Below, in pieces: positions 21,291-59,382 of a stretch of 64,000 bases of DNA. The notes under the pieces are model-generated. The model was given only the letters and a program-made list of their open reading frames with translations, did no database searches and was not told the DNA's origin. Position 1 is the first letter of the stretch. Every line of letters starts with the position of its first letter. The position numbers and the translations under genes are program-made. The stretch comes from Candidatus Woesearchaeota archaeon (GTDB lineage Archaea > Nanobdellota > Nanobdellia > Woesearchaeales > UBA583): contig JAQICV010000049.1 in assembly GCA_027858315.1 (NCBI GenBank), positions 4,928 through 68,927 on the forward strand. Reading direction: 5' to 3'.

Positions 21291-23726
21291 CTAAAAAAAA
21301 TTAGTACCAGACCAATCCCCTTTTTGTTGACCTTGTTGTGGCGCTTGATGTTTAAAAGTACTCTCATTCATACCATAAGAAGAAAATTCTTGCCTAGAAT
21401 TATAATTTCTATCAACACTAACCCAATCAGAAATTCCGCTCGATGTAGAACTGCCATAAGAATTCAAACTCGGATTAAACAAATCAAACGCAGCACTAAT
21501 ATGTGAACTTCTACCTCCAGCTTCAATAATCATTGCCTCATTGACTCCTGCCTTCCTTAAAGTATGCCTTAAATCATGCATATCAAGCATACCTGTACCA
21601 ATAGTATTATGGTCATCATCCTTACCTTGAGTATCATTAAAATGAACATGCTTTACTAATTTATCTTCAACAAGTTCCTTAGCTTGTCCTTTAAGCCAAC
21701 TATTAAATGCATCAGCTCTCAACTCTTCAGCAAGAGGTTTTCCAGTATTAGGATCAATTGGATTAAAATGTTTAAACCATGAACCTGCGTGTGCTGTATC
21801 AAGAGTACCTATTAAATGATTTTGAGCAACTTTTAGAGCATCTTCTTTACTATTAATCTTCTTACCTGTCTCTTTTTCATAATCATCCTTAATAGACTTA
21901 TAAAAATCCTCTTTCCCATTAAGTAATTTATCTGCAAAATCACTCTGACCTACTCTAATTACTGCCTTAAACTCTTCAAGTGATGTCAAATTTCCCATTC
22001 CAGGAAGCATATTCTCAGGAGAAATGTAAAGAGGATTCTTCAAAATATCAATATCTGAATAATCTTTCATACCTATCCATTTTCGAATCTCCCTCTTCTT
22101 CTTAGACATCTCATGATTAATCTCATCTTTCTCATCAAAAGTTTTAGCACTATTATACTTCTTCTCCAAATTAGATAGCTCAGTTTTAAGTGCTGGCAAT
22201 TTAGTAACTGATTCTTTAGACTTTTTTTTCATATCTAATTGATACTTCAAACCTTTAAATGCAACATGAGAAAGGCCCGAAATATTCTTATCAAAGCTAT
22301 CTTCTGCAAGAGACTTTGCATTAACTGATGCTTGCTCAATATCTTTAATTTTTTTATTAAAATCTGCTATTTGTTCATCATAATTAGAAAGCATATGATA
22401 ATCTTCTTGACCAATTGAATGATGTTTTAACTCAATAATCTGTTGATTTCTCTCAGAAATATCTATTTTAATTCCATCTTTAGCAGCTTCATTCTCCTCA
22501 TTATCTTCCTTAAAATCATTAATTTTTATAAGTGCATCCCTATTATCTTTCTCAAGTTTCCTAACTTTAACAAGCTCATCTTTAAACATATCATGCTTCA
22601 TCTCAAATTTCTTTTTCTGTAACTTAATTGACTCTTTCTCAACACTCTTTATCTTTTTATAAAATTCAGTATCTGCATTTGAATACACATTATCTTTAAT
22701 ATCTAAAATTTTATCATAGGTTATCAAATACTTGTCCCTTATTTCTTTGAAATTCTTTTCAGAGAATCCTTTTTTAGTAAACTCTGTAGGTGGTTTTTCA
22801 CTAGACAAAATTCCTTGAACTTTTTGAAAATCATCAATAGACAAATTTTTCCCTACATTAACATTAAAAAAATCAAAAAACTTCTTTTCATTATCATTAA
22901 AATCTTCTCCATTCAATAAATTAACATCTACCAATTCCGATTTCCTATCAACTTGAGTCAATTGATCTCCAATAGCTATATGACTAGAAACATTAGAAAG
23001 CTTAATCTTATCCTTTTGAGTCTTAATAAAATAATACTCAGCAGCACTCTTTCCATCAAAATCACCTTTATTCTCTCTTTCAAACTTAGACTTAGTATCA
23101 TTATCTAAACTAGAATACTCATGTTCAATCTGATTAATCTTAGAAGGGTCATCAACAAACATTCTCTTCAAAGGATCATCAGAAAGATAATCTTTTTTTA
23201 ATTTATCTAGTTCATCTGTTTTTTTATTATCAATAAGCCATTGTTTGTACCTATCCGTTAAAGTTAATTGCGTTCTTGAAGTCTGATTATGAGATTCTCC
23301 TTGTAAATGCATAACAACAGCACCACCCTTAGTAGTCTCTGCTGCAAACTTCATAGTCTCATCCATCTCTTTAATTGAATCCCATCTCGAAGCTGCATCA
23401 TAACCTTCTCTACCCATTCCAGCAAAAGAAGTAACATCAACAGAACTATGTACACTAAGAGATTGATTATTTAATTTCGCAAGCTGCATAATTGTTCTTC
23501 TATGTTCAAAACCATACTTATCAGGAACATCATTAGCATTAAACTCACCCTTACCACTCCTATTCAAATGAAGCTCGACATGTTTAACACCTTGCCTAAT
23601 CTTTGTTTGAAGTTCTGAGAGTTGATTCTGACCAGGAACTGTAGTTGTTCCAAAAGTTCCTAAAGTTTCTCGAAACCTTTTAGGATCATGTTGATCAAAA
23701 TCAGAAGAATAAGATTGCTTTGTCAT
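21291..23726 (-). CDS. xylose-isomerase-like (AP-endonuclease-2 family) TIM-barrel protein split by a roughly 480-aa charged, coiled-coil-like insertion
   Basis: The N-terminal part has GVKHVELHL, LSVHSS and GGAVVMHLQGE. The C-terminal part has GTLDTAHAGSW and HVHFNDTQGKDDDHNTIGTGMLD. A K/E/D-rich region lies between them. The start is placed at the internal Met (MTKQSYS); the ORF itself extends to 23813. Confidence 0.55.
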   Translation of the reverse strand: MTKQSYSSDFDQHDPKRFRETLGTFGTTTVPGQNQLSELQTKIRQGVKHVELHLNRSGKGEFNANDVPDKYGFEHRRTIMQLAKLNNQSLSVHSSVDVTSFAGMGREGYDAASRWDSIKEMDETMKFAAETTKGGAVVMHLQGESHNQTSRTQLTLTDRYKQWLIDNKKTDELDKLKKDYLSDDPLKRMFVDDPSKINQIEHEYSSLDNDTKSKFERENKGDFDGKSAAEYYFIKTQKDKIKLSNVSSHIAIGDQLTQVDRKSELVDVNLLNGEDFNDNEKKFFDFFNVNVGKNLSIDDFQKVQGILSSEKPPTEFTKKGFSEKNFKEIRDKYLITYDKILDIKDNVYSNADTEFYKKIKSVEKESIKLQKKKFEMKHDMFKDELVKVRKLEKDNRDALIKINDFKEDNEENEAAKDGIKIDISERNQQIIELKHHSIGQEDYHMLSNYDEQIADFNKKIKDIEQASVNAKSLAEDSFDKNISGLSHVAFKGLKYQLDMKKKSKESVTKLPALKTELSNLEKKYNSAKTFDEKDEINHEMSKKKREIRKWIGMKDYSDIDILKNPLYISPENMLPGMGNLTSLEEFKAVIRVGQSDFADKLLNGKEDFYKSIKDDYEKETGKKINSKEDALKVAQNHLIGTLDTAHAGSWFKHFNPIDPNTGKPLAEELRADAFNSWLKGQAKELVEDKLVKHVHFNDTQGKDDDHNTIGTGMLDMHDLRHTLRKAGVNEAMIIEAGGRSSHISAAFDLFNPSLNSYGSSTSSGISDWVSVDRNYNSRQEFSSYGMNESTFKHQAPQQGQQKGDWSGTNFF

Positions 23727-23918
23727 AATAAAAATTAATAAAACTAATATATAAAACTTTGTAAACCCCAAAGGTTTACAACATCTATGAATGAAACATT
23801 CATACGATACCAAAAATTTATTTTATAAATTATTGAACAGCTTAGGAATTGAAAATTCATTGACTTTGTGAGAACTGTCTAACAATAGCTCAAAAAATAT
23901 CAAAAAAATAAAAAATAA

Positions 23919-24386
23919 TTATAATCTATGTTTTCTTCTATATTCATCCCCTTCTTTCTTAAGATGGGATGCAGCTTTAAACTCTTTTGAGATCTTAGAT
24001 ATTCTTGAAATCTTTTGAACTCTTAAAAGTTTTGTAAGTCTTGCAAGTTTCAAAACTTCAAAAGTAACCAAACCATTTGCAATTAAACCAAAAGGAATAG
24101 TTGCTAAAACATCAAGCCAATTATGCATGAAAAAATCTTTAGGACCATTAGATTCAATCCACAATCTAATTAAATCTGCAAAGAAAATTATGAAAACGAC
24201 AATGTTAACATAAAAATAAATTCCTGATAAACTATCAAAATCAATTGATGTCTTTCCAGTCTCACTAAAAATCTCAAGTAACAAAAAGATTGTTACTGCA
24301 AAAACTGCTAAAAAGACTAAAAAATCCAAAAGTCTATCTATCCCAGTTTTTTCCTGAACGAAATACTCGTCAAAACTATTATCCAT
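23919..24386 (-). CDS. voltage-sensor-domain-only protein (S1-S4 of the ion-transport family, no pore)
   Basis: 155 aa. S2 YVNIVVFIIFFADLIRLW, S3 HNWLDVLATIPFGL and S4 LKLARLTKLLRVQKISRISKISK with basic residues every third position. The ORF ends about 25 aa after S4. Confidence 0.6.
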   Translation of the reverse strand: MDNSFDEYFVQEKTGIDRLLDFLVFLAVFAVTIFLLLEIFSETGKTSIDFDSLSGIYFYVNIVVFIIFFADLIRLWIESNGPKDFFMHNWLDVLATIPFGLIANGLVTFEVLKLARLTKLLRVQKISRISKISKEFKAASHLKKEGDEYRRKHRL

Positions 24387-24446
24387 TTTATAAAAAAATC
24401 ATCAAAATAGAATATATACTTTACTAACCACTAAAAAGTAACTCAA

Positions 24447-26879
24447 TTAATAATAACCAAGCCTAATAAGACTTGAACAATCATTAGTTCCTACTTGTAA
24501 AGTATTAATATTAATAAGATTAGTAGTAATATTTTCGTCATCTTCTTGATAACCAAAAATCGAATAAGCATCCGCTAAACACTTATCTAAGACCAAATTA
24601 TAATAATTGTCAGTAGTTACACTAGAAGTAATATTTGTAATATTATACAGTGCAACTTCAGGCAAAGATTTAGACCTTTTAAAGATATCATAAAAAAATT
24701 TAGAAGAATATGAATGATTCCCATCATATGCAGCATTATTATAATTCATAGTATTAGGATTAATTAAAGTAATATAATTGCAACAGCCCTTACCAAATTC
24801 AGCATAATTAAAATAATTCCTTTGAATCTCTTCATCAGTTAAAGTTCGATTATAAATCTTAACTTCATCAATTATACCTTTAAAAAATTGTCCTCCAGCC
24901 CCTAAATTCATATGTGGATCCATACCAAAAAAAAGGTTCGAACTTGAAGAAACACTTCCAAAAGAAATATTTGTAGATTCCAAATAACCATTGACAAATA
25001 ATTTACTAATTTTCGCTTCCCTCACCACACAAGAATAATACCACTCATAAGATTCCAAAATTGTAGTTGAATAATTAAATGAATCAGTTATCAAATATTT
25101 TAATTTTTTAGAAGAATTCTCGAGCTCAAATTCAAAATTACCATTAATAATAGAACTATTTCTTTTTACAATAATTTGTTGATACAAATTTAATTGTCCT
25201 TCAAAATTTGGTTTAAACCATGCACATAATGAAAAATCATCAATACCAAACTGAAATTTATCCGAAGAATTAATAATCTCAACATAATCATCAACTCCAT
25301 CAAATTCAATTCCTCTACCATGCAATGAATCTTTATAATCTACATATAATGCTTTCTTCTCCCTATATAAATCTGCAATTTCATTATCTGTAAGCTCTTT
25401 GGAGTAAATCCCAACCTCATCAATTGTTCCATTCAAAAAATTTCCACCTGCGCCCAAAGAACCAATATACAAAGGAAAACTTGAACTAACATTATAATTT
25501 CCCCTAACACTAGTATTTTTTTTAATTCCATTAACATACAAACTCATAATCTCCAAATTATAAACTGCTACAATATGATTCAAACCACTATCTAAATTTT
25601 CAATACTAAGTCTAGGTTCATAATCTACTCCATCCCATATAAAAAAATCAGTACTATTAGAGTCTATATCCTCACTTCTCCTCAAAATAAAAGCTTCAGA
25701 TTTAGAAATAATATTTTCATGATCTCCTATCGAAAAACTCTCATTAAAATCAACCCATACAGAAATAGAAAAACTAGAATTAGTGAAATTTAAAGATTCA
25801 TTGTCGAGAATTTCAATATAATCATCAATACCATCAAACAAACAACCATTACCTCTAATCCCAACAACAGAACAATTCACTCCATTAAAAATAGTCCCAT
25901 TATTCTTATACGCACTCAAATCTAAAACTTCATTACCAATCAAACTTACAGAATCAAAACTCATAAGCATTCTAGAATTCCCATAATGATTTGCCAAAGG
26001 AGAATAAATCGAAGAATCAACAACTCCAAAATTCTCTTCATCATAATCAAAACTCCAAAAACCTAAAACATCCTCATAAGAATTAACTGAAACATTCATA
26101 AACCTAGACAAATAACTACCACCCAAAGTATACTTATAAGTTGGCTCATAAAAAACGAGAGAATAATTCTCAGTTAAAACTTCCTTAAGCATATCATGAG
26201 TCCAATTACTTTCCGATAAATACCTCTCAGAAGGCCTAATTGTAACATTAAGGTCATCAAGTAATACAAACTCAGGATCATATAAAGAATCAATAGGAAT
26301 CGATACAACAAACTTATCTTCAAAATTCCAATTAGAAATATTATCTATAGTAGTAATATTATATTCAACCAACATCTGCGCAGAAACATAATAAGGTTTA
26401 TCTTCAAACAAATAAAGATCCAACACTCTAAAACTAAAATTTCCTTTATACGCATCATAAAAATTTGCAGAAAATTCATCCATAAAATAATTAATAGTCT
26501 TATTTTCAAGACTACCTTGAGCCTCAGAATCAAAAGAACCATTAATCATACCTTCAACAACAAACTCCTGAAATTTAGAATAATTATTCGAATATTTCAA
26601 ATAATTAGTATCAATTCTAGAATAATTTGTGAAAATATCAAAAGAACTAAATAATGAATATGATAAAATTGAATTAACATAACTATTCTTAAAATATTTT
26701 ATTTCATCATCAATGTAAGAAATTCTTGCATCTTTAAATTCATTATCTTTTGTAAAATCACTTTTATTCATATTAATTGCAACAAAAGAAAAGACAACAA
26801 CAGACAAAAAAAATGCTAAAAATGTAAAAGCAAATGCTTTTTTACTATTCCTCAAAATATTTTTTCTTATCATTTCCAA
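24447..26879 (-). CDS. large surface protein with a class-III-signal-like N-terminus and two tandem LamG/concanavalin-A-like lectin domains
   Basis: 810 aa. N-terminus RNSKKA|FAFTFLAFFLSVVVF. LamG repeats are FDGIDDYIEI...FSISVWV...GTIDEVGIYSKELTDNEI and FDGVDDYVEI...FSLCAWF...GIIDEVKIYNRTLTDEEI. Many N-x-S/T sequons. Confidence 0.7.
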   Translation of the reverse strand: MEMIRKNILRNSKKAFAFTFLAFFLSVVVFSFVAINMNKSDFTKDNEFKDARISYIDDEIKYFKNSYVNSILSYSLFSSFDIFTNYSRIDTNYLKYSNNYSKFQEFVVEGMINGSFDSEAQGSLENKTINYFMDEFSANFYDAYKGNFSFRVLDLYLFEDKPYYVSAQMLVEYNITTIDNISNWNFEDKFVVSIPIDSLYDPEFVLLDDLNVTIRPSERYLSESNWTHDMLKEVLTENYSLVFYEPTYKYTLGGSYLSRFMNVSVNSYEDVLGFWSFDYDEENFGVVDSSIYSPLANHYGNSRMLMSFDSVSLIGNEVLDLSAYKNNGTIFNGVNCSVVGIRGNGCLFDGIDDYIEILDNESLNFTNSSFSISVWVDFNESFSIGDHENIISKSEAFILRRSEDIDSNSTDFFIWDGVDYEPRLSIENLDSGLNHIVAVYNLEIMSLYVNGIKKNTSVRGNYNVSSSFPLYIGSLGAGGNFLNGTIDEVGIYSKELTDNEIADLYREKKALYVDYKDSLHGRGIEFDGVDDYVEIINSSDKFQFGIDDFSLCAWFKPNFEGQLNLYQQIIVKRNSSIINGNFEFELENSSKKLKYLITDSFNYSTTILESYEWYYSCVVREAKISKLFVNGYLESTNISFGSVSSSSNLFFGMDPHMNLGAGGQFFKGIIDEVKIYNRTLTDEEIQRNYFNYAEFGKGCCNYITLINPNTMNYNNAAYDGNHSYSSKFFYDIFKRSKSLPEVALYNITNITSSVTTDNYYNLVLDKCLADAYSIFGYQEDDENITTNLININTLQVGTNDCSSLIRLGYY

Positions 26880-27412
26880 ATAATTGTTTTAAATATATAT
26901 GGCCCATAAACTTGCGAATTATTAAAACCAAAAATAATCCTCTGTCTAGAAGACACAACTGAACTATCATCATATTCTATTTGAGGACGATTCAACTTTA
27001 CAAACAAAACATCCACAACTCCACTATCTTCCTCTTCAATAGTTAAATTAAAATTCATTTGTTTATCCAAATAATCCTCAACAAAAACTTGTGTCAAATC
27101 ACTAGCCAAAACCATATCATTAATATAATAAAATTCTGCTACTTGTTGCGCCACAGTATTCTCAATGTTTTTTATCTCTCCTGCAATAAACATATCTCTT
27201 ATTTCTTTATTATTCAAAGAATTAATCTTAGTATTTGTAAATCCATCTAAAATATTTTTATTAAGTTCATAAACATCATCTCCAATATCAACATTTAAAT
27301 AATAATTATAAATCAAACTAACACTTAAAATTAAAACAATAAAAGATAAAATCAAATCAAACATAAATATTTGACCACTCTTTTTCCTAATTAAAATCAA
27401 CTTGAAACACAT
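26870..27412 (-). CDS. type IV pilin-like protein (class III signal peptide)
   Basis: 180 aa. IRKKSG|QIFMFDLILSFIVLILSVSLIY. It overlaps the downstream gene by 10 nt and the upstream gene by 16 nt. Confidence 0.55.
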   Translation of the reverse strand: MCFKLILIRKKSGQIFMFDLILSFIVLILSVSLIYNYYLNVDIGDDVYELNKNILDGFTNTKINSLNNKEIRDMFIAGEIKNIENTVAQQVAEFYYINDMVLASDLTQVFVEDYLDKQMNFNLTIEEEDSGVVDVLFVKLNRPQIEYDDSSVVSSRQRIIFGFNNSQVYGPYIFKTIIWK

Positions 27413-27804
27413 GGAACATCATTAACAATAATACTACTTGAACCAACCCCAGTAACATTAGAATCTGAGTCTATCTTTACCAAATTACCATCCTTTTCAA
27501 AAACAATACAAAAATCATCTCTAATATTTAATTCTTCTCGTAATTGTTCAATATCTATTTGTAATAAATTTTCAACTTGAATATTATTCTCCTCATCAAT
27601 AATTTCAGTATTTTTAAATTCATCAACAATTGCATTAGAATATACTGAAGCTTCAGCATATAAAGCATCAACATCAACATCAGAAGTATTATTAACCTTT
27701 GTTGCAACTAAAAACAAAGCCCCAAAAAGCACTACAACAATCACAACTAAAATATCTGTCGAAATTGCTTGACATTTTTTATTTAAATTATTTCTCTTTT
27801 CCAT
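27397..27804 (-). CDS. type IV pilin-like protein (class III signal peptide)
   Basis: 135 aa. NKKCQA|ISTDILVVIVVVLFGALFLVA, followed by a small globular domain. Confidence 0.5.
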   Translation of the reverse strand: MEKRNNLNKKCQAISTDILVVIVVVLFGALFLVATKVNNTSDVDVDALYAEASVYSNAIVDEFKNTEIIDEENNIQVENLLQIDIEQLREELNIRDDFCIVFEKDGNLVKIDSDSNVTGVGSSSIIVNDVPCVSS

Positions 27805-27812
27805 CTTTCATA

Positions 27813-28754
27813 TCAATCATTATCACTACATACGTAGATTTTCATAGTTACTGGCTCATTATTTAAAAAAACTGTATACTTTTGCGCAATCAAATTCTCA
27901 CACTCACCTTCTGCACTCTCAACAACAATTTTATCATCTGTAAACATTTTACTTCGATAATTATCCCAAGTAGGACTACATTGAACTTCTCTACTAGGAT
28001 CCAGAATATCTACAACCCAACTTTCCAAAATAGCACCATCACAACTAAGAGGAACATTTCTACAAGTATTTACCTTTTGAGAGCATAAAGAATAAACTCT
28101 CCCATCAAGTTTACTAGTACAATCCAAATTACATTCAAGAGATGCAAGACTCTCAAACATTCTTCCCCATACAGTATATTCATATTGATTTGTACCATCA
28201 AAAGTAGCATCACAAGAACTAACTACTCCATTTTCAATATCACTAATTTTGAACATACAAGTATAAAGTGCCCTTGAGTAATCATAATTACTAGCTACTA
28301 TATCAAATGTAGAAAATTGGTCTGGAACATCTACACATAATTTTTTAGTATAATACTGCAAAGACGGATTAGAAGAAACAGCAGAAATCAAAAACCTTGA
28401 AGGAGCAATACCAACACGAGAATTAAACTCTGAAGCATAATACAATACATCAACTCCACCATCAGGACAAGATGAAGTAACATCTTCAACACTATAACTC
28501 AAATTTCCAAAATCAGAACCACAACAAAGTACTTCATTATAATACCCTCCATAATTATAAGTTGCAACATTTGAACTCAAGGCTTCAACACCACTTAAGT
28601 CTTTAAAAAAATCATTCACATGAAAAATTTTAACTTCTCCTGTCAAACAACTCGGCTTATATTCACAGGTAACGCTCTCTCCAGCAGAAAAAGAAGAAAA
28701 CGACACCATACTTAGCATGATAAACAAAATAAAAAGCTTTCTAATCATAGTCAA
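27813..28754 (-). CDS. secreted cysteine-rich protein (hypothetical)
   Basis: 313 aa. Sec-type signal MIRKLFILFIMLSMVSFSSFSA and 16 Cys residues. It is the first gene of the pilin-like operon. Confidence 0.5.
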   Translation of the reverse strand: MTMIRKLFILFIMLSMVSFSSFSAGESVTCEYKPSCLTGEVKIFHVNDFFKDLSGVEALSSNVATYNYGGYYNEVLCCGSDFGNLSYSVEDVTSSCPDGGVDVLYYASEFNSRVGIAPSRFLISAVSSNPSLQYYTKKLCVDVPDQFSTFDIVASNYDYSRALYTCMFKISDIENGVVSSCDATFDGTNQYEYTVWGRMFESLASLECNLDCTSKLDGRVYSLCSQKVNTCRNVPLSCDGAILESWVVDILDPSREVQCSPTWDNYRSKMFTDDKIVVESAEGECENLIAQKYTVFLNNEPVTMKIYVCSDND

Positions 28755-28799
28755 ATCCCTAATAAATTATATATATACATTTGTAACTACTTAAAAGAA

Positions 28800-31694
28800 T
28801 CACTTTTTAGAATCTAAACAGATTTCATTAAAATCACAATAAGTACAATTAAAAAAAGAAGGAGTAGGTAAAAATACTTTTTTCTCAATATTACTAATCG
28901 CATCCAAAACTTCTGCCTTCATTTTATCAAAATCAATCTCTGAAACTTCAACCTCAACAAGTTCATCATGAATCAAATACCAGAGTCCAACTTTACTTGG
29001 AAGTTTGCCTCTCAAATGTTCAATTGCAAGTGCATAAACAAAAAGTTGAATGTTCTTTTTTAACTGCATTTTTGTCTCCATACTATTAGAAGTTTTATAA
29101 TCTATAATCACAAAATTATCTCCAACTTTATCAACTCTATCAATAAATCCTAAAATCTTTTTACCTTCAAGATTAATCACAAATTTATCTTCAATTCCTA
29201 TAACTTCTCTAGTCTCATCTTCAGAAAAAAGTTTCTCCTTAAAAATAAATTTCTTAATTACTTCTAATCCTTTTTGAAAATACTCTTTCTCCTGGTCTGC
29301 AGAAGCATAACCTTTTGAAATCCATTTCTCTTTAAGCATAGCAGCAGCCCTCCCATAACAAATCTCAGAAGAAAATTTTCTTATATCAAAAACAAATTCC
29401 TCTAAAACACTATGAACTGAAGTTCCAAAATCAAAATAATGTTTAGACTCTCCAGGAACTCTATAAACATACTGGTATAAATACTTTTTAGGACAAGACT
29501 GATAGGTTTTAATTTGAGAAACAGAATAAACATGAGAAGAAAAATCTACATCAACATCATAAAAAGGATCTTTTTTTTCAATTCTTGTAAAATCTAATTC
29601 ATCTTTATTAAAAAAATAATTCAAATCTTTTTTCGCATACATAAGTTTTAATTTTTCCATATCAGATTTTGCCAAATCAAAATTCTCTGAAATCAAATGT
29701 GAAGTTATTTTATCAATCATTTTAACTTTAATATCTTCTTTAAAATCAAGTTTTAATTCATCAAATTCAACATCATACTTTTCAACATTTAACCCTAAAA
29801 CTTCTAAAAAATTTGAAGGTTTAGAATCAAGTTTATTATCTACAAACCTTCTCACATAAACCAAATCAAGTTCTTTTCTAGACCTTGTAATCCCAACAAA
29901 AAACAATCTATTCTCTTCTTCAACAAATGATTTTTTATCTTCAACACCCAAAATATCAAACTTAGATTTCATGAAATTAGAAGGGAATTTTCTCTCATTC
30001 AAATTAGGCATAATCACATAATCAAACTCTTTTCCTTTAGACGAATGCAATGTCAAAAGTTCAACTTTACTGCCAGATTTCTGTTCAAATTTAATATCAA
30101 GCCTCTTCGAGTTCTCACACACTTTCAAAAAACTAGACAAATTCGAATTTCTATAAACTTTAATATAATCTCTTGCAAACTTAACAAAATTATTAAGTGC
30201 AGAAACTCCCTCAAAATTATTTCCTAAAAATGCTCTTTGAAAATTTCCAAATTTAAAAATTGTCTCCCTTAATAAATCATCAAGTTCCCTTTTAGAATCT
30301 TTAAACTTTATTAAAAAATCTAAATCAGAATAAATCTTTTTCAACACTTCAAAATCTATACCATAATCATCTGATTCTTTCAAATTCATTAAAGTCTTAA
30401 AAATTGATTTTTCATTAAAAGAACTTTTTCTCATAATTTTTCTAACATTCTCATATGAAACAAAGCAATCAGATAAAAATTTAAAATACTCTGAAGTACA
30501 ACCTCGAGGATTTTCAATAATTTTTAATTTATTCAAAACATCTTTAATAATATCTTGTTCAAAAAAATTAATCGCCTCATTCGCATTAAAACTAATCCCT
30601 AAATTTTTCAAGAATTTTGCAGTATTTGTAAGTTCAAATTTCCTCCTAAACAAAACTCCAATTTTTGCTTCAGGTTCTTTTTCTAAAATATTTGAAATTC
30701 TCTGAGCAATAAATGAATCTTGAGAATTAGAATTTGATGCTTCAATTAAAGAGACCTCCCCTTTCTCTTCAAAAACATTTTCTAGAACTTCATCATTTGA
30801 AGCAATATCTAAAACTAATTTATTAATATTATTTAAAACACTCTTAGAAGACCTATAATTCTTATGTAAAAAAACCTCTTCATAATTTTTATAATGCGCT
30901 TTAAAATCTCCTAAATTTGAAAAATTTGCTCCACGAAAAGAATATATGCTCTGTTTTTGATCACCAACAATAGTAATATTTTCTCCAGAAATAAGTTTAA
31001 TGATATCTAATTGAATCTTATTAGTATCTTGAAACTCATCAACTAAAATATATTTATATTTGTTCTTAATCTCATCTCGAACTTCTAAATTATTTTTTAG
31101 TAAATCAAAAACATACAAAAGTAAATCTCCAAAATCCAGATAATTATTCTCTCGTTTATACAATTCATATTTTGAATAAGCTTGAATCAAATCCGATTTC
31201 AAATTAATATCTTCAACTTTTAATTTAACTAAATCTTCTAAAGAGTAACCAAAATCTTTAAGTTTAGAAATTGTTCCAACAATTTCATGTGCAATTTGAA
31301 CATAATTATTCTTCATCTCAAATGAAGTAAATTTCATATCTTTCAAATTATCTAAAAAAAATAAAAGTTGATTAGTCTCATCAATCAAACTAAAGTCTTT
31401 ATCAATCATAGAAATTTGATTCTGATAAGTATCAATAATTTCAAGTGCAAACTCATGAAATGTTTTTGCAAAAAAAGGTCTACTAGTTTTAATCTCAACC
31501 CTCTCAGACATTTCAGCAGCAGCTTTTTTAGTAAAAGTAATCGGAAGGATTTCATCTTCGGAGTATTTTTTTTCTTCAAGCAAAAAATTAATTTTCTCAG
31601 TAATCATGTGAGTTTTGCCAGTACCAGGTCCAGCAATAACTACAAGAGGTTTATCTATAATTTTAACTGCATTTTTTTGCTCAGAATTTAACAT
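28800..31694 (-). CDS. UvrD/PcrA-type SF1 helicase fused to a Cas4/AddB-like PD-(D/E)XK nuclease with a Cys cluster
   Basis: 964 aa. Walker A VIAGPGTGKTHMI, ILVDEFQDTN, LHSSKGKEFDYV and VGITRSRKEL. The C-terminal nuclease has SCPKKY, GFIDRVD...VIIDYKTS, QLFVYALA and CTYCDFNEIC. Confidence 0.85.
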   Translation of the reverse strand: MLNSEQKNAVKIIDKPLVVIAGPGTGKTHMITEKINFLLEEKKYSEDEILPITFTKKAAAEMSERVEIKTSRPFFAKTFHEFALEIIDTYQNQISMIDKDFSLIDETNQLLFFLDNLKDMKFTSFEMKNNYVQIAHEIVGTISKLKDFGYSLEDLVKLKVEDINLKSDLIQAYSKYELYKRENNYLDFGDLLLYVFDLLKNNLEVRDEIKNKYKYILVDEFQDTNKIQLDIIKLISGENITIVGDQKQSIYSFRGANFSNLGDFKAHYKNYEEVFLHKNYRSSKSVLNNINKLVLDIASNDEVLENVFEEKGEVSLIEASNSNSQDSFIAQRISNILEKEPEAKIGVLFRRKFELTNTAKFLKNLGISFNANEAINFFEQDIIKDVLNKLKIIENPRGCTSEYFKFLSDCFVSYENVRKIMRKSSFNEKSIFKTLMNLKESDDYGIDFEVLKKIYSDLDFLIKFKDSKRELDDLLRETIFKFGNFQRAFLGNNFEGVSALNNFVKFARDYIKVYRNSNLSSFLKVCENSKRLDIKFEQKSGSKVELLTLHSSKGKEFDYVIMPNLNERKFPSNFMKSKFDILGVEDKKSFVEEENRLFFVGITRSRKELDLVYVRRFVDNKLDSKPSNFLEVLGLNVEKYDVEFDELKLDFKEDIKVKMIDKITSHLISENFDLAKSDMEKLKLMYAKKDLNYFFNKDELDFTRIEKKDPFYDVDVDFSSHVYSVSQIKTYQSCPKKYLYQYVYRVPGESKHYFDFGTSVHSVLEEFVFDIRKFSSEICYGRAAAMLKEKWISKGYASADQEKEYFQKGLEVIKKFIFKEKLFSEDETREVIGIEDKFVINLEGKKILGFIDRVDKVGDNFVIIDYKTSNSMETKMQLKKNIQLFVYALAIEHLRGKLPSKVGLWYLIHDELVEVEVSEIDFDKMKAEVLDAISNIEKKVFLPTPSFFNCTYCDFNEICLDSKK

Positions 31695-44827: not shown

Positions 44828-44835
44828 AAAAAAAA
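44828..44835 (-). terminator. T8 run abutting the 16S rRNA 3' end
   Basis: The minus strand reads GGATCACCTCCTTTTTTTTAAAG. Confidence 0.45.
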
Positions 44836-46284
44836 GGAGGTGATCCATCCGCAGGTTCCCCTACGGATACCTTGTGACGACTTAACCCCCCTCACAGAGC
44901 TCAGATTTGATACACCCAAAAAGATGCACCTCATCTCAACCCTACTTGGTTGGTTTGACGGGCAGTGTGTCCAAGGAGAATGGACATATTCACCGGACGC
45001 TGATAACGTCCGATTACTAGCGATTCCAATGTCACGAGGCTGAGTTACAAACCTCGATCTAAACTAAGATTCAGTTTCGGGATTAGCTCCTCCTTTCGGA
45101 GTGGCGACTCATTGTCTGAACCATTGTTGCGCGCGTGTAGCCCAGGAGATTCGGGCTATACAGACCTACCGTCGCCTACACCTTCCTCCTTGTTTCCAAG
45201 GCAGTCTCTATAATGTGCTCCAGTTAACCTGGTTAGCAATTATAAACATAGGTCTTGCTCGTTTCCTCACTTAAGAGGACACCTTACAGCACGAGCTGAC
45301 GGCGGCCATGCAGCACCTCTCAGCGCCTTAGGTAAAACCTTTAATCTGACCTTCATAGTGCTGTCGCCCCTGGTAAGTTTCTCAGTGTACAGTCTAATTA
45401 AACCGCACGCCGCACCGCTTGTAGTACTCCCCCGGCAATTCCTTTAAGTTTCGGCCTTGCGGCTGTACTTCCCAGGTGGCGGGTTTAATGCCTTCGCTTC
45501 CCCCTTGCTAAATCTCATAGATTTAGCAAAGCGTAACCCGCAGCGTTTACGGCTAGGACTACCCGGGTATCTAATCCGGTTCGCTACCCTAGCTCTCGTC
45601 CCTCACTGTCAGATCCGTTCTAGTGTGATGCCTTCGCATTAGTTAGTCCTGTAAGGATTATAACATTTTACCGCTACCCAAACAATACTTCACACCTCTC
45701 CCGGTCTCAAGTTAAACAGTTTCTCTTGCAGTTTCTAGGTTAAGCCAAAGAAATTTCACAAGAGACTTATCAAACCAGCTACGGACACTTTAGACCCAAT
45801 AAAAGTGATCTCCACTTGTGGCGCTGGTATTACCGCGGCTGCTGGCACCAGTCTTGCCCACCACTTATTCGTTATGCTCATTACACATAATAAAAGCCTA
45901 CCTTTCGGTAAGCACGAGGGGTTGCCCTATCACACTTGCGTGCATTGTAGAGGTTTCGCGCCTGCTGCACTCCTTAGAGCTAGGACCCTTATCTCAGTGT
46001 CCTTCTGGGGGTCATTGCTCTCACAACCCCTACCGATCTTAGACTTGGTGAGCCATTACCTCACCAACAATCTAATCGGCCGCCACCCCATCTTATATTC
46101 ATTATCAAAACATTCCAGTTTTTGATAACTATAACTTTTACACTCAATTTCTCGAGATTATTAGAAACTATAAGGCAGGTTAGTGACGTGTTACTCAGCC
46201 TTCCGCAGTCAGAACAAGTCTAACATACTTACATGGCTTAATCCAACCCCTCTAGCAGAAATCTCTCGCAGGATCAACGAGAAT
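44834..46284 (-). rRNA. rrs: 16S ribosomal RNA (archaeal type), about 1450 nt
   Basis: 5' end ATTCTCGTTGATCCTGCGAG and 3' end GGGGAACCTGCGGATGGATCACCTCCTT. Internal universal blocks GTGCCAGCAGCCGCGGTAA (45830-45848) and ATTAGATACCCGGGTAGTCC. GC is far above the local background. Confidence 0.95.
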
Positions 46285-58938: not shown

Positions 58939-59382
58939 TCAATTAGTTGTCAATAACTCAATTTTAATATCTTCACTCTCTTTTAAAAAATTAATTACAG
59001 TAATATTTTGTCCATTCCCTGCAATTTTATGACCAACAGTAATATTTAATCCTACAGGAATATTGTAATAATAAGTCATATTCTCATCATATAAATCTTT
59101 AATAATAATCATTTCATTTAAAATCTCAATATGATAATCTTGAGAATAAACATCTAAATTTCGAGAATACCCACCATTAACAGTATTTAAAATCTCAATC
59201 TCTTTCACAATATTTTCCAAAAAATTTTCTGCAACATTTTTTTTATCTTGCTCAACAAAATCACCTAAAAGAGAACCAGTAATATACATAACTCCTGCTA
59301 TAATAGTTAAAACAAACATTAAAATTAACATGAATTCTACTGCTTGTTGTCCTCTCTTTGATTTAAACATATAAAAATACAC
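58939..59382 (-). CDS. type IV pilin-like protein (class III signal peptide), isolated copy
   Basis: 147 aa. KSKRG|QQAVEFMLILMFVLTIIAGVMYI, with Glu at +5 after the predicted cleavage site. Confidence 0.55.
   Translation of the reverse strand: MYFYMFKSKRGQQAVEFMLILMFVLTIIAGVMYITGSLLGDFVEQDKKNVAENFLENIVKEIEILNTVNGGYSRNLDVYSQDYHIEILNEMIIIKDLYDENMTYYYNIPVGLNITVGHKIAGNGQNITVINFLKESEDIKIELLTTN

Follow-up and report, generated by a model that had tools for sequence, protein, structure and literature searches.

The subject of this work is a four-gene unit on the minus strand of a 64,000-nucleotide (nt) stretch of DNA from a metagenome-assembled genome of a Candidatus Woesearchaeota archaeon (assembly GCA_027858315.1, contig JAQICV010000049.1, positions 4,928 to 68,927), which we call the window. 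The unit encodes a secreted cysteine-rich protein, two small pilin-like proteins and one very large pilin-like protein with two lectin-type domains. The GC content of the window is about 28%, its GC skew is strongly negative, and archaeal housekeeping genes are present in it. The genes and other features of the unit are listed below in the order of transcription (aa, amino acids; ORF, open reading frame).

28767-28791, minus strand: operon promoter, AGTAGTTACAAA abutting the TATA box TGTATATATATAA, 43 nt upstream of the cys313 ATG
27813-28748 (ORF 27813-28754), minus strand: gene 1, cys313, 311 aa from the ATG, 313-aa ORF
27397-27804, minus strand: gene 2, pil135, small pilin-like protein, 135 aa
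26870-27412, minus strand: gene 3, pil180, small pilin-like protein, 180 aa
24447-26873 (ORF 24447-26879), minus strand: gene 4, lamG808, 808 aa from the ATG, 810-aa ORF
25374-25835, minus strand: LamG domain 1 of lamG808, aa 349-502 in the 810-aa numbering, covering the full Pfam profile PF13385 (1-151 of 151)
24810-25307, minus strand: LamG domain 2 of lamG808, about aa 525-690 with approximate bounds, the second PF13385 stretch
24450-24797, minus strand: C-terminal domain of lamG808 with four conserved Cys (KGCCNY ... C ... C) and no recognised fold
24433-24437, minus strand: candidate archaeal terminator, a T5 run 10 nt past the lamG808 stop, closing the operon

The ORF list contains the four same-strand ORFs that the initial annotation had reported, and the gap of 8 nt that it placed between genes 1 and 2 is correct. 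Its other two junctions need revision to different degrees. The 16-nt overlap of genes 2 and 3 is possible, and a TTGA overlap through a TTG at 27400 is equally possible; the pil180 ATG 12 nt upstream of this TTG may also be the start, and it is kept in the closest relative. The 10-nt overlap of genes 3 and 4 is replaced, on the junction sequence, by an ATGA stop/start overlap. Most likely, the true starts of both lamG808 and cys313 are ATG codons lying two codons inside the listed TTG ORFs. For lamG808 the inner ATG is indicated by the database copy P0001, which is 808 aa long, and with this start the overlap with the pil180 stop becomes ATGA rather than 10 nt. The four genes are one operon, that is, one transcription unit, as had been proposed, since the promoter element stands only before gene 1 (no AGTRGT-N6-TATA element precedes any of the three downstream operon genes), a T-run follows gene 4 and the junctions are tight (8 nt, TTGA or 16 nt, ATGA). 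The T5 run is in itself weak evidence, the DNA being 28% GC.

A scan of one genome per GTDB species gave 11 loci in Woesearchaeota/Nanoarchaeota metagenome-assembled genomes (MAGs), to which one Joint Genome Institute (JGI) contig, L013, is added. One of the loci, L004, is a complete genome of 1.54 Mb (CP060218.1) that carries the operon. The order Cys-rich protein, 135-aa protein, 180-aa protein and LamG giant is identical in 12 of 12 full-length related loci, the spacing is similarly tight, and the operon proteins are 29-50% identical across loci. Hence the synteny that was to be looked for in related genomes is indeed there, in the 11 GTDB genomes as well as in the JGI contig, and the four-gene arrangement is not a matter of chance. 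Directly upstream of the operon, in 9 of the 11 GTDB loci and in L013, there is a helicase-nuclease gene. In L002 and L004 the upstream neighbour is a different one and the four-gene block is intact; the order of the four genes holds even where the flanks upstream or farther downstream change.

Two side observations concern these neighbours and records. In the window, the helicase-nuclease gene (28800-31694, minus strand) encodes a 964-aa fusion of a UvrD-type helicase with a C-terminal PD-(D/E)XK/Cas4-like nuclease (AddA/AddB-like). Five of the loci (L009, CAXPJQ010000021.1; L001; L006; L007; L010) carry the archaeal operon and archaeal flanks on contigs whose records name the source as 'Bdellovibrionales bacterium' or 'uncultured Methanosarcinales archaeon'. 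Mis-binning or mislabelling of these MAGs is the probable reason.

The evidence that genes 2 to 4 begin with class-III (prepilin-type) signals consists of tables of distinct orthologue N-termini for the three families. By definition (PMC9934059), a class 3 signal has a leader that is short, hydrophilic and basic, ends at -1 in a small residue, canonically Gly or Ala, and is followed directly by a hydrophobic tract. In all three families the leader is short (roughly 5-15 residues), basic and Lys-rich with K at -2/-3, the residue at -1 is always small (G/A/S/C, one T), and the predicted site is followed by 22-26 mostly hydrophobic residues, which covers the approximately 21 expected. With the predicted cut written as ↓, the consensus is K-K-[G/A/S/C]↓Q....D for the two small families and K-K-[G/A]↓F-x-F for the giant.

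In the pil135 family (leader MEKRNNLNKKC, mature start QAISTDILVV), 28 of 31 distinct orthologue N-termini have K-3, position -1 is G17/S8/A4/C2, and Q+1, S+4 and D+6 are each present in 31 of 31. We place the cut before the Gln because it is invariant in these 31 N-termini; the site first given, KKCQA↓ISTD, is off by two residues and KKC↓QAISTD is the likely one. Gln at +1 is required for processing by EppA in Methanococcus (PMC4390842). The pil180 family (leader M(CFK)LILIRKKSG, mature start QIFMFDLIL) is represented by 23 distinct N-termini, with K-2 in 19, S16/G4/A1/T1/C1 at -1, Q+1 and D+6 in all 23 and F+3 in 22, giving the motif Q-[ILV]-F-x-[FLM]-D. In the lamG808 family (leader MIRKNILRNSKKA, mature start FAFTFLAFF; 20 distinct N-termini) position -3 is K18/R2 and position -1 is G13/A6/C1, followed by F+1 in 17 of 20 and F+3 in 20 of 20, and there is no acidic residue. 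Profile comparison by hhalign aligns the two small families over the N-terminal 27 columns only, in the same register, with a probability of 24%; it aligns neither of them with the giant. Paralogy of the globular parts among the three families is thus unsupported, as N-terminal columns are all that hhalign finds in common. Judged from the tables of N-termini, the three class-III-like N-termini are held under selection. Of the proposed class-III signals, then, the conserved motifs hold in three families, and a match to a pilin hidden Markov model (HMM) is not part of the picture.

Automated annotation is able to conceal such a signal. The NCBI gene call for pil180 (P0031) starts at Met17 and gives 164 aa, by which the conserved K-K-S-G↓Q leader is lost, and 5 of the 23 database homologues are shortened in the same way. 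A signal of the pil180 type is therefore hidden wherever the gene call starts past the leader.

Structure prediction of the N-terminal helix, which had been suggested as a check, gave a lollipop-shaped model for pil180. The AlphaFold2 model, made with 23 homologues (predicted local distance difference test, pLDDT, 86.8; predicted template modelling score, pTM, 0.71), is confident; in it an unbroken 49-residue helix (12-60) begins where cleavage is predicted, and after it come three short helices and a sheet of four strands. The 'lollipop' is the fold defined for type 4 pilins (PMC9934059), and the pil180 model is such a lollipop in outline. For pil135 it is the cysteines that are informative. 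In each of the 34 distinct sequences of this family the mature part contains exactly 2 Cys. One is the invariant C-terminal Cys, and its partner occupies one of two mutually exclusive positions (18 and 13 sequences). A disulfide that has been relocated in this manner argues for an extracytoplasmic, folded head. A metagenome scan with the 135-aa profile found at least 6 loci, mostly short, and added nothing to this.

lamG808 has two Pfam Laminin_G_3 (PF13385) stretches at E=7.3e-43, with 146.7 bits against a cut-off of 27.6. This is far above the HMM threshold, so that the protein belongs to the LamG / concanavalin-A-like lectin superfamily and the two tandem LamG domains read in the 810-aa ORF are confirmed. 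Domain 1 matches 4qvs (E=1.3e-15), pentraxin PTX3 and pappalysin in the PDB. Domain 2 has a conserved G..IDEVKIYN motif and matches the arabinanase C-terminal domain 5hon at profile positions 515-680 (E=3e-10). With the family profile, residues 1-308 and 690-808 have no PDB match, and what PDB matches there are belong to the LamG type or the pentraxins only. The C-terminal Cys domain, which has neither a Pfam nor a PDB match, has C697, C698, C765 and C799 invariant in 13 sequences. The many N-x-S/T sequons pointed out earlier are also real, and enriched beyond composition: lamG808 has 32 and the shuffled sequences 12.3+-3.1 (z=6.4), whereas the cytoplasmic proteins encoded in the window have no more sequons than expected, or fewer.

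The 13 full-length orthologues of lamG808 are 32-42% identical. The opinion that the set has no characterised homologue is supported, given that the NCBI names of the proteins are hypothetical or 'LamG domain-containing', the label of the large protein itself being 'LamG domain-containing protein'. Its sole named NCBIfam match is TafC (NF052521; E=1.9e-19, 70 bits against a cut-off of 410). We reject membership of the TafC family, as the match is confined to the LamG part (profile 191-364 of 373).

Gene 1 was described as a Sec-signal protein with 16 Cys, and this description stands. The disulfide-rich cys313 has a Sec-type signal, 16 Cys and no membrane anchor; across 11 orthologues the Cys are kept, 2 of them with near invariance and the other 14 strictly. 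It has no match in Pfam, NCBIfam or the PDB. Of 1.84 billion cluster representatives, about 55 are its relatives, with lengths of about 300 aa, from which we conclude that the four-gene module is narrow in distribution. Taken together, the sequon excess, the 16 conserved Cys and the relocating disulfide of pil135 indicate the extracellular character of the operon products.

Among the distant matches of cys313, P0137 and P0139 were rejected as low-complexity repeats. P0136 (771 aa, from another low-GC organism) truly has the C-terminal Cys-rich half of cys313 (residues 183-311), which is preceded there by about 640 aa of unrelated N-terminal sequence. Since P0136 carries that half alone, the C-terminal half of cys313 is a separable module.

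How should these four proteins be understood together? Our leading hypothesis is that they are a set of minor pilins or tip adhesins peculiar to this lineage. They would build an extracellular, glycosylated device in which a modular subunit with two lectin domains is the cap and a secreted disulfide-rich protein the partner; type IV machinery encoded elsewhere would assemble it, and it would serve glycan-mediated attachment. In our opinion this explanation deserves about as much belief as doubt. It follows the 'adhesion pilus or tip complex' of the initial annotation, of which the operon, the N-termini, the LamG domains and the synteny are borne out, and a pilin HMM or fold match is missing.

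We infer cleavage, polymerisation, a position at the tip, glycan binding and host attachment, and the events might be as follows. Both small proteins and the giant would be inserted N-in by means of their short basic leaders. A prepilin-type peptidase like EppA/FlaK/PibD, encoded elsewhere, would cut after the small residue at -1, and the cleaved subunits would stack via their hydrophobic N-terminal helices. The giant, having no acidic residue and two LamG domains, would come on top, like the GspK/PilX-type or modular pilins, with the two Q+1/D+6 subunits beneath it. Capping minor pilins without the conserved acidic residue have been described (PMC9934059). The Sec-secreted 16-Cys protein would join as a non-pilin partner. 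The complex may then prime and cap a filament of a separate major pilin (compare 58939-59382, below), or it may form a short pseudopilus, and it would bind glycans on a partner cell or a surface.

Several known systems resemble this arrangement in part. One of them is that of Streptococcus sanguinis. Its PilC, a type 4 pilin of modular build, carries a concanavalin-A-like lectin module and sits at the pilus tip (PMC9934059). Like the operon described here, PilA/PilB/PilC are several pilins of one operon, one of them very large with a lectin module of the ConA/LamG superfamily behind the pilin moiety; one subunit is without the conserved acid, and in one the class 3 signal is so degenerate that prediction tools miss it. 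However, the S. sanguinis system is bacterial, its assembly genes are adjacent, and PilC has Glu5 and a single lectin module, whereas the Woesearchaeota giant has two LamG domains, two further domains that match nothing known and no acid, and it is accompanied by a 16-Cys protein secreted through Sec. Between the S. sanguinis tip pilins and the operon proteins we detected no similarity, either of sequence or of fold.

Minor-pilin sets are operon-encoded, and the pilin-like sets GspH-I-J-K of type II secretion and FimU-PilV-W-X (with PilY1) of type IVa pili are examples. In them, too, the largest protein (K/X-type) is without the acid and caps the complex, and a large non-pilin adhesin can be attached. 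The differences are that they have four pilins instead of three, E+5 instead of D+6, and G↓F/M instead of [G/S]↓Q N-termini; no homology to the operon was found by HMM, hhalign or Foldseek.

The EppA-dependent (Epd) pilins of Methanococcus maripaludis (DUF361) and the related bacterial pseudopilins TadE-TadF-TadG share with our two small proteins the short basic leader, the small residue at -1 and Gln+1. The Q-x-S-x-E motif of Epd is similar to Q-x-x-S-x-D of pil135, which is one residue longer and has Asp. In Tad the order is two small pseudopilins and then one large adhesive protein, which is a further likeness. On the other hand, PF04021 misses the operon proteins while it weakly matches the pilin at 58939-59382, and no ATPase or TadC gene is adjacent to the operon.

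Two archaeal examples have LamG-type regions. TafC (NF052521; PMC11821415), a fimbrial protein that forms a minor subunit of the haloarchaeal Tat-fimbriae, is of the LamG type in its C-terminal region; unlike the operon proteins, Tafi subunits are Tat-exported and assembled by strand donation (PMC12337348), and do not have class III signals. LamG jelly-roll proteins are expanded in DPANN archaea, and some of them adjoin type IV pilus (T4P) loci (Mia14 'ARMAN'), where a role in host contact was proposed (PMC5498576). The Mia14 proteins differ from ours in that they belong to another phylum and are not described with pilin-type N-termini or in a four-gene unit; the Woesearchaeota operon, for its part, has no T4P genes near it.

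There are a number of points that speak against a minor-pilin set, and they must be stated before the alternatives are compared. The Pfam models Class_IIIsignal, Pilin_N, N_methyl and TadE and the NCBIfam pilin models have no match to the operon proteins of the window at E<=1, so the Pfam Class_IIIsignal check that had been recommended was negative. When 24+23 family members were scanned at E<=10, the lone match to a pilin model was one to Pilin_N at E=0.15, and PF04021 (Class_IIIsignal, DUF361) matched none of the pil135/pil180 family members. The small families have as their acidic residue an Asp at +6, which resembles in principle the Glu of pilins and is off its canonical position, +5; Ser prevails at -1 in the pil180 family (16 of 23); and a FlaFind-type pattern fails on most members owing to F+3 and, in the 180-aa family, S-1.

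The folds are not helpful either. Neither pil135 nor pil180 has a Pfam, NCBIfam or PDB sequence match, and PDB profile searches found no pilin for pil135 or for pil180 (whole protein and N-terminal segment). 'FlaL2' (E=0.012), the sole N-terminal PDB match, is a spirochete flagellar protein, which we rejected as chance. A Foldseek search of the PDB with the pil180 model gave no pilin, the best match being ribosomal uS3 (E=1.1e-2, TM 0.26); with the pil135 model it gave no pilin and nothing below E=2.6. The pil135 model itself (mean pLDDT 67, residues 1-41 below 50) has no confident N-terminal helix, and in it the membrane helix is not continuous with the helix that follows. Finally, in most of these genomes the conserved gene order extends far past the operon into flanks that are themselves largely syntenic, and synteny by itself is therefore of little weight as an argument for function.

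The same facts are what makes a signal-anchored surface complex a serious alternative. According to it, the three proteins have uncleaved type II membrane anchors and form, with the Cys-rich protein, a tethered glycosylated lectin complex, that is, a cell coat or adhesin with no filament and no type IV machinery. The lack of any pilin HMM or structural match fits well with this, as do the linker by which the pil135 model joins its membrane segment to its globular part and the non-canonical Ser-1 and Asp+6; at no locus is there an assembly gene within +-10 kb. Half of the pil135 family also weakly match the first transmembrane segment and loop of ABC2_membrane_3 (best E=5e-4), as one would expect of an ordinary anchor followed by an ectodomain. 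But an uncleaved anchor leaves unexplained why, in three families that are 30-50% identical, Gln and Asp are invariant at fixed positions and the residue after two Lys is strictly small. Moreover, the modelled pil180 helix, unbroken over its 49 residues, extends far past a membrane span, and the N-termini differ as those of tip and body minor pilins do, with an acid in two and none in the largest. We therefore consider the surface complex the main rival, possible and rather unlikely.

The missing machinery deserves separate comment. In the window and 20 loci, 300 kb in all, we found no T2SSE-type Walker A, no GxGD[..]K (A24) peptidase motif and no polytopic platform candidate, which is a further point against the minor-pilin set; for the window itself, this agrees with the initial annotation, which saw no assembly ATPase, platform protein or prepilin peptidase there. 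However, archaeal pilin genes are commonly apart from the assembly operon (PMC4858521), and for this reason the absence of assembly genes in 300 kb is no refutation. In addition, the window contains a separate pilin gene.

58939-59382, minus strand: canonical class-III pilin (leader MFKSKRG, mature start QQAVEFMLIL), 147 aa, standing alone and far from the operon

Its residues 9-34 match the Pfam Class_IIIsignal profile (1-26 of 27) at E=6.6e-4 with 20 bits, the cut-off being 23.7; there is a weak TadE match as well, and the protein passes a loose N-terminal rule. We regard it as a candidate major pilin. Because a canonical class-III pilin is encoded in the same window, the organism very probably has a prepilin pathway, including a prepilin peptidase.

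If this pathway does process the operon proteins, the product need not be an attachment device. It could be a class-III-dependent pseudopilus or 'bindosome'-like assembly, a short envelope structure in which the LamG modules capture polysaccharide or glycoprotein nutrients. Such an assembly would draw on the same N-terminal evidence as the minor-pilin set. Sulfolobus sugar-binding proteins have class III signals and are not known to form long pili, and the PDB relatives of LamG_3 include appendages of carbohydrate-active enzymes (arabinanase 5hon/5ho0, a sialidase carbohydrate-binding module). Yet neither a transporter nor a glycosidase is encoded in the conserved block, we detected no fold of a substrate-binding protein, and the lineage is generally thought to be host-associated, so that we hold nutrient capture to be improbable. 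It is hardly credible that the operon encodes a DNA-uptake (competence-like) pseudopilus working with the upstream UvrD-helicase/PD-(D/E)XK nuclease, frequent as that adjacency is, because it breaks in two genomes (the helicase is absent or separated in L002 and L004, with the four-gene unit intact) and the operon has its own promoter; besides, no ComEC or ComEA-like gene is nearby, and the LamG domains with the heavy predicted glycosylation indicate binding of glycan, not of DNA.

The promoter of the operon leads to a further gene, which lies directly downstream.

24410-24432, minus strand: second copy of the promoter element, AGTGGTTAGTAA with TATA TATATATT, 46 nt upstream of tm155
23919-24386, minus strand: tm155, a stand-alone voltage-sensor-domain protein, 155 aa, four helices, no pore domain

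The element of cys313 recurs 43-45 nt upstream of the cys313 orthologue in eight other loci (L001, L003, L005-L007, L009-L011). That of tm155 is found 43-53 nt upstream of the ATG in 8 of 10 other scorable loci (L001-L007, L010), and 103 nt upstream in L008 and L011. Over the window and the loci, AGTRGT occurs at -60..-35 of 21 of 211 gene starts; 18 of these 21 belong to cys313 or tm155 orthologues, and just 3 to the approximately 189 other gene starts. We thus reject the idea that AGTRGT-N6-TATA is the generic promoter of the lineage: in the window it precedes the operon and the voltage-sensor gene only, and the next gene, p840, has the generic ACAAA+TATA part only. The genomes are far too diverged for an intergenic element to be kept by neutral conservation. 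All this suggests a dedicated transcription-factor site.

tm155 looks like a pore-less voltage-sensor domain. It has an S4-like helix with K/R at every third residue (LKLARLTKLLRVQKISRISKISK), and in the PDB it is best matched by 1ors_C, the voltage sensor of KvAP in isolation (E=2.6e-3), and by 2kyh. It follows the lamG gene directly in 11 of 11 genome loci and in L013, and its orthologues are 56-69% identical. Because the promoter motif is common to both, tm155 is probably co-regulated with the operon. To us this is a candidate link, and we do not claim that tm155 is a member of the device.

Two observations on the surroundings may be added. Behind tm155, the 840-aa protein p840 (21291-23813, minus strand; true start near Met30) is conserved in 10 of 10 loci that reach that far (9 GTDB loci and L013); it has a xylose-isomerase-like TIM barrel (AP_endonuc_2, residues 670-767), apparently interrupted by about 450 residues of inserted coiled coil. 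A complete archaeal 16S ribosomal RNA (rRNA) gene lies at 44835-46284 (minus strand; 1322.7 bits) and there is no 23S rRNA match anywhere in the window, hence the rRNA operon is unlinked.

One can go further and combine everything into a non-canonical type IV tip organelle of the Woesearchaeales, specific to this lineage and consisting of a heavily N-glycosylated double-LamG cap pilin that has no acidic residue, a pair of Q+1/D+6 minor pilins whose folds would be new, and a secreted partner with 16 Cys, with transcription coupled to a stand-alone voltage sensor via AGTRGT-N6-TATA. As a complete picture this is doubtful, and we would count it as unlikely. If it were true, these archaea would attach to hosts by a device deployed in connection with a sensor of membrane potential, and there would be a new pilin signal class missed by current predictors and HMMs.

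The general idea is already known from modular lectin pilins and from LamG proteins near DPANN pili, so the advance would be a new variant in a new lineage, and not a new principle. The three N-termini make up a consistent signal class that Pfam, NCBIfam and FlaFind-type rules do not recognise, and censuses of archaeal pilins in DPANN genomes probably undercount such proteins. The shared promoter motif provides a handle on regulation, and brings a pore-less voltage-sensor protein into consideration. Literature searches on pili of Woesearchaeota/Woesearchaeales returned nothing specific. Woesearchaeota are small-celled, abundant and uncultivated. An operon that is conserved, predicted to be co-transcribed and extracellular, and equipped with lectin domains is in our opinion a candidate for the attachment apparatus of these archaea.

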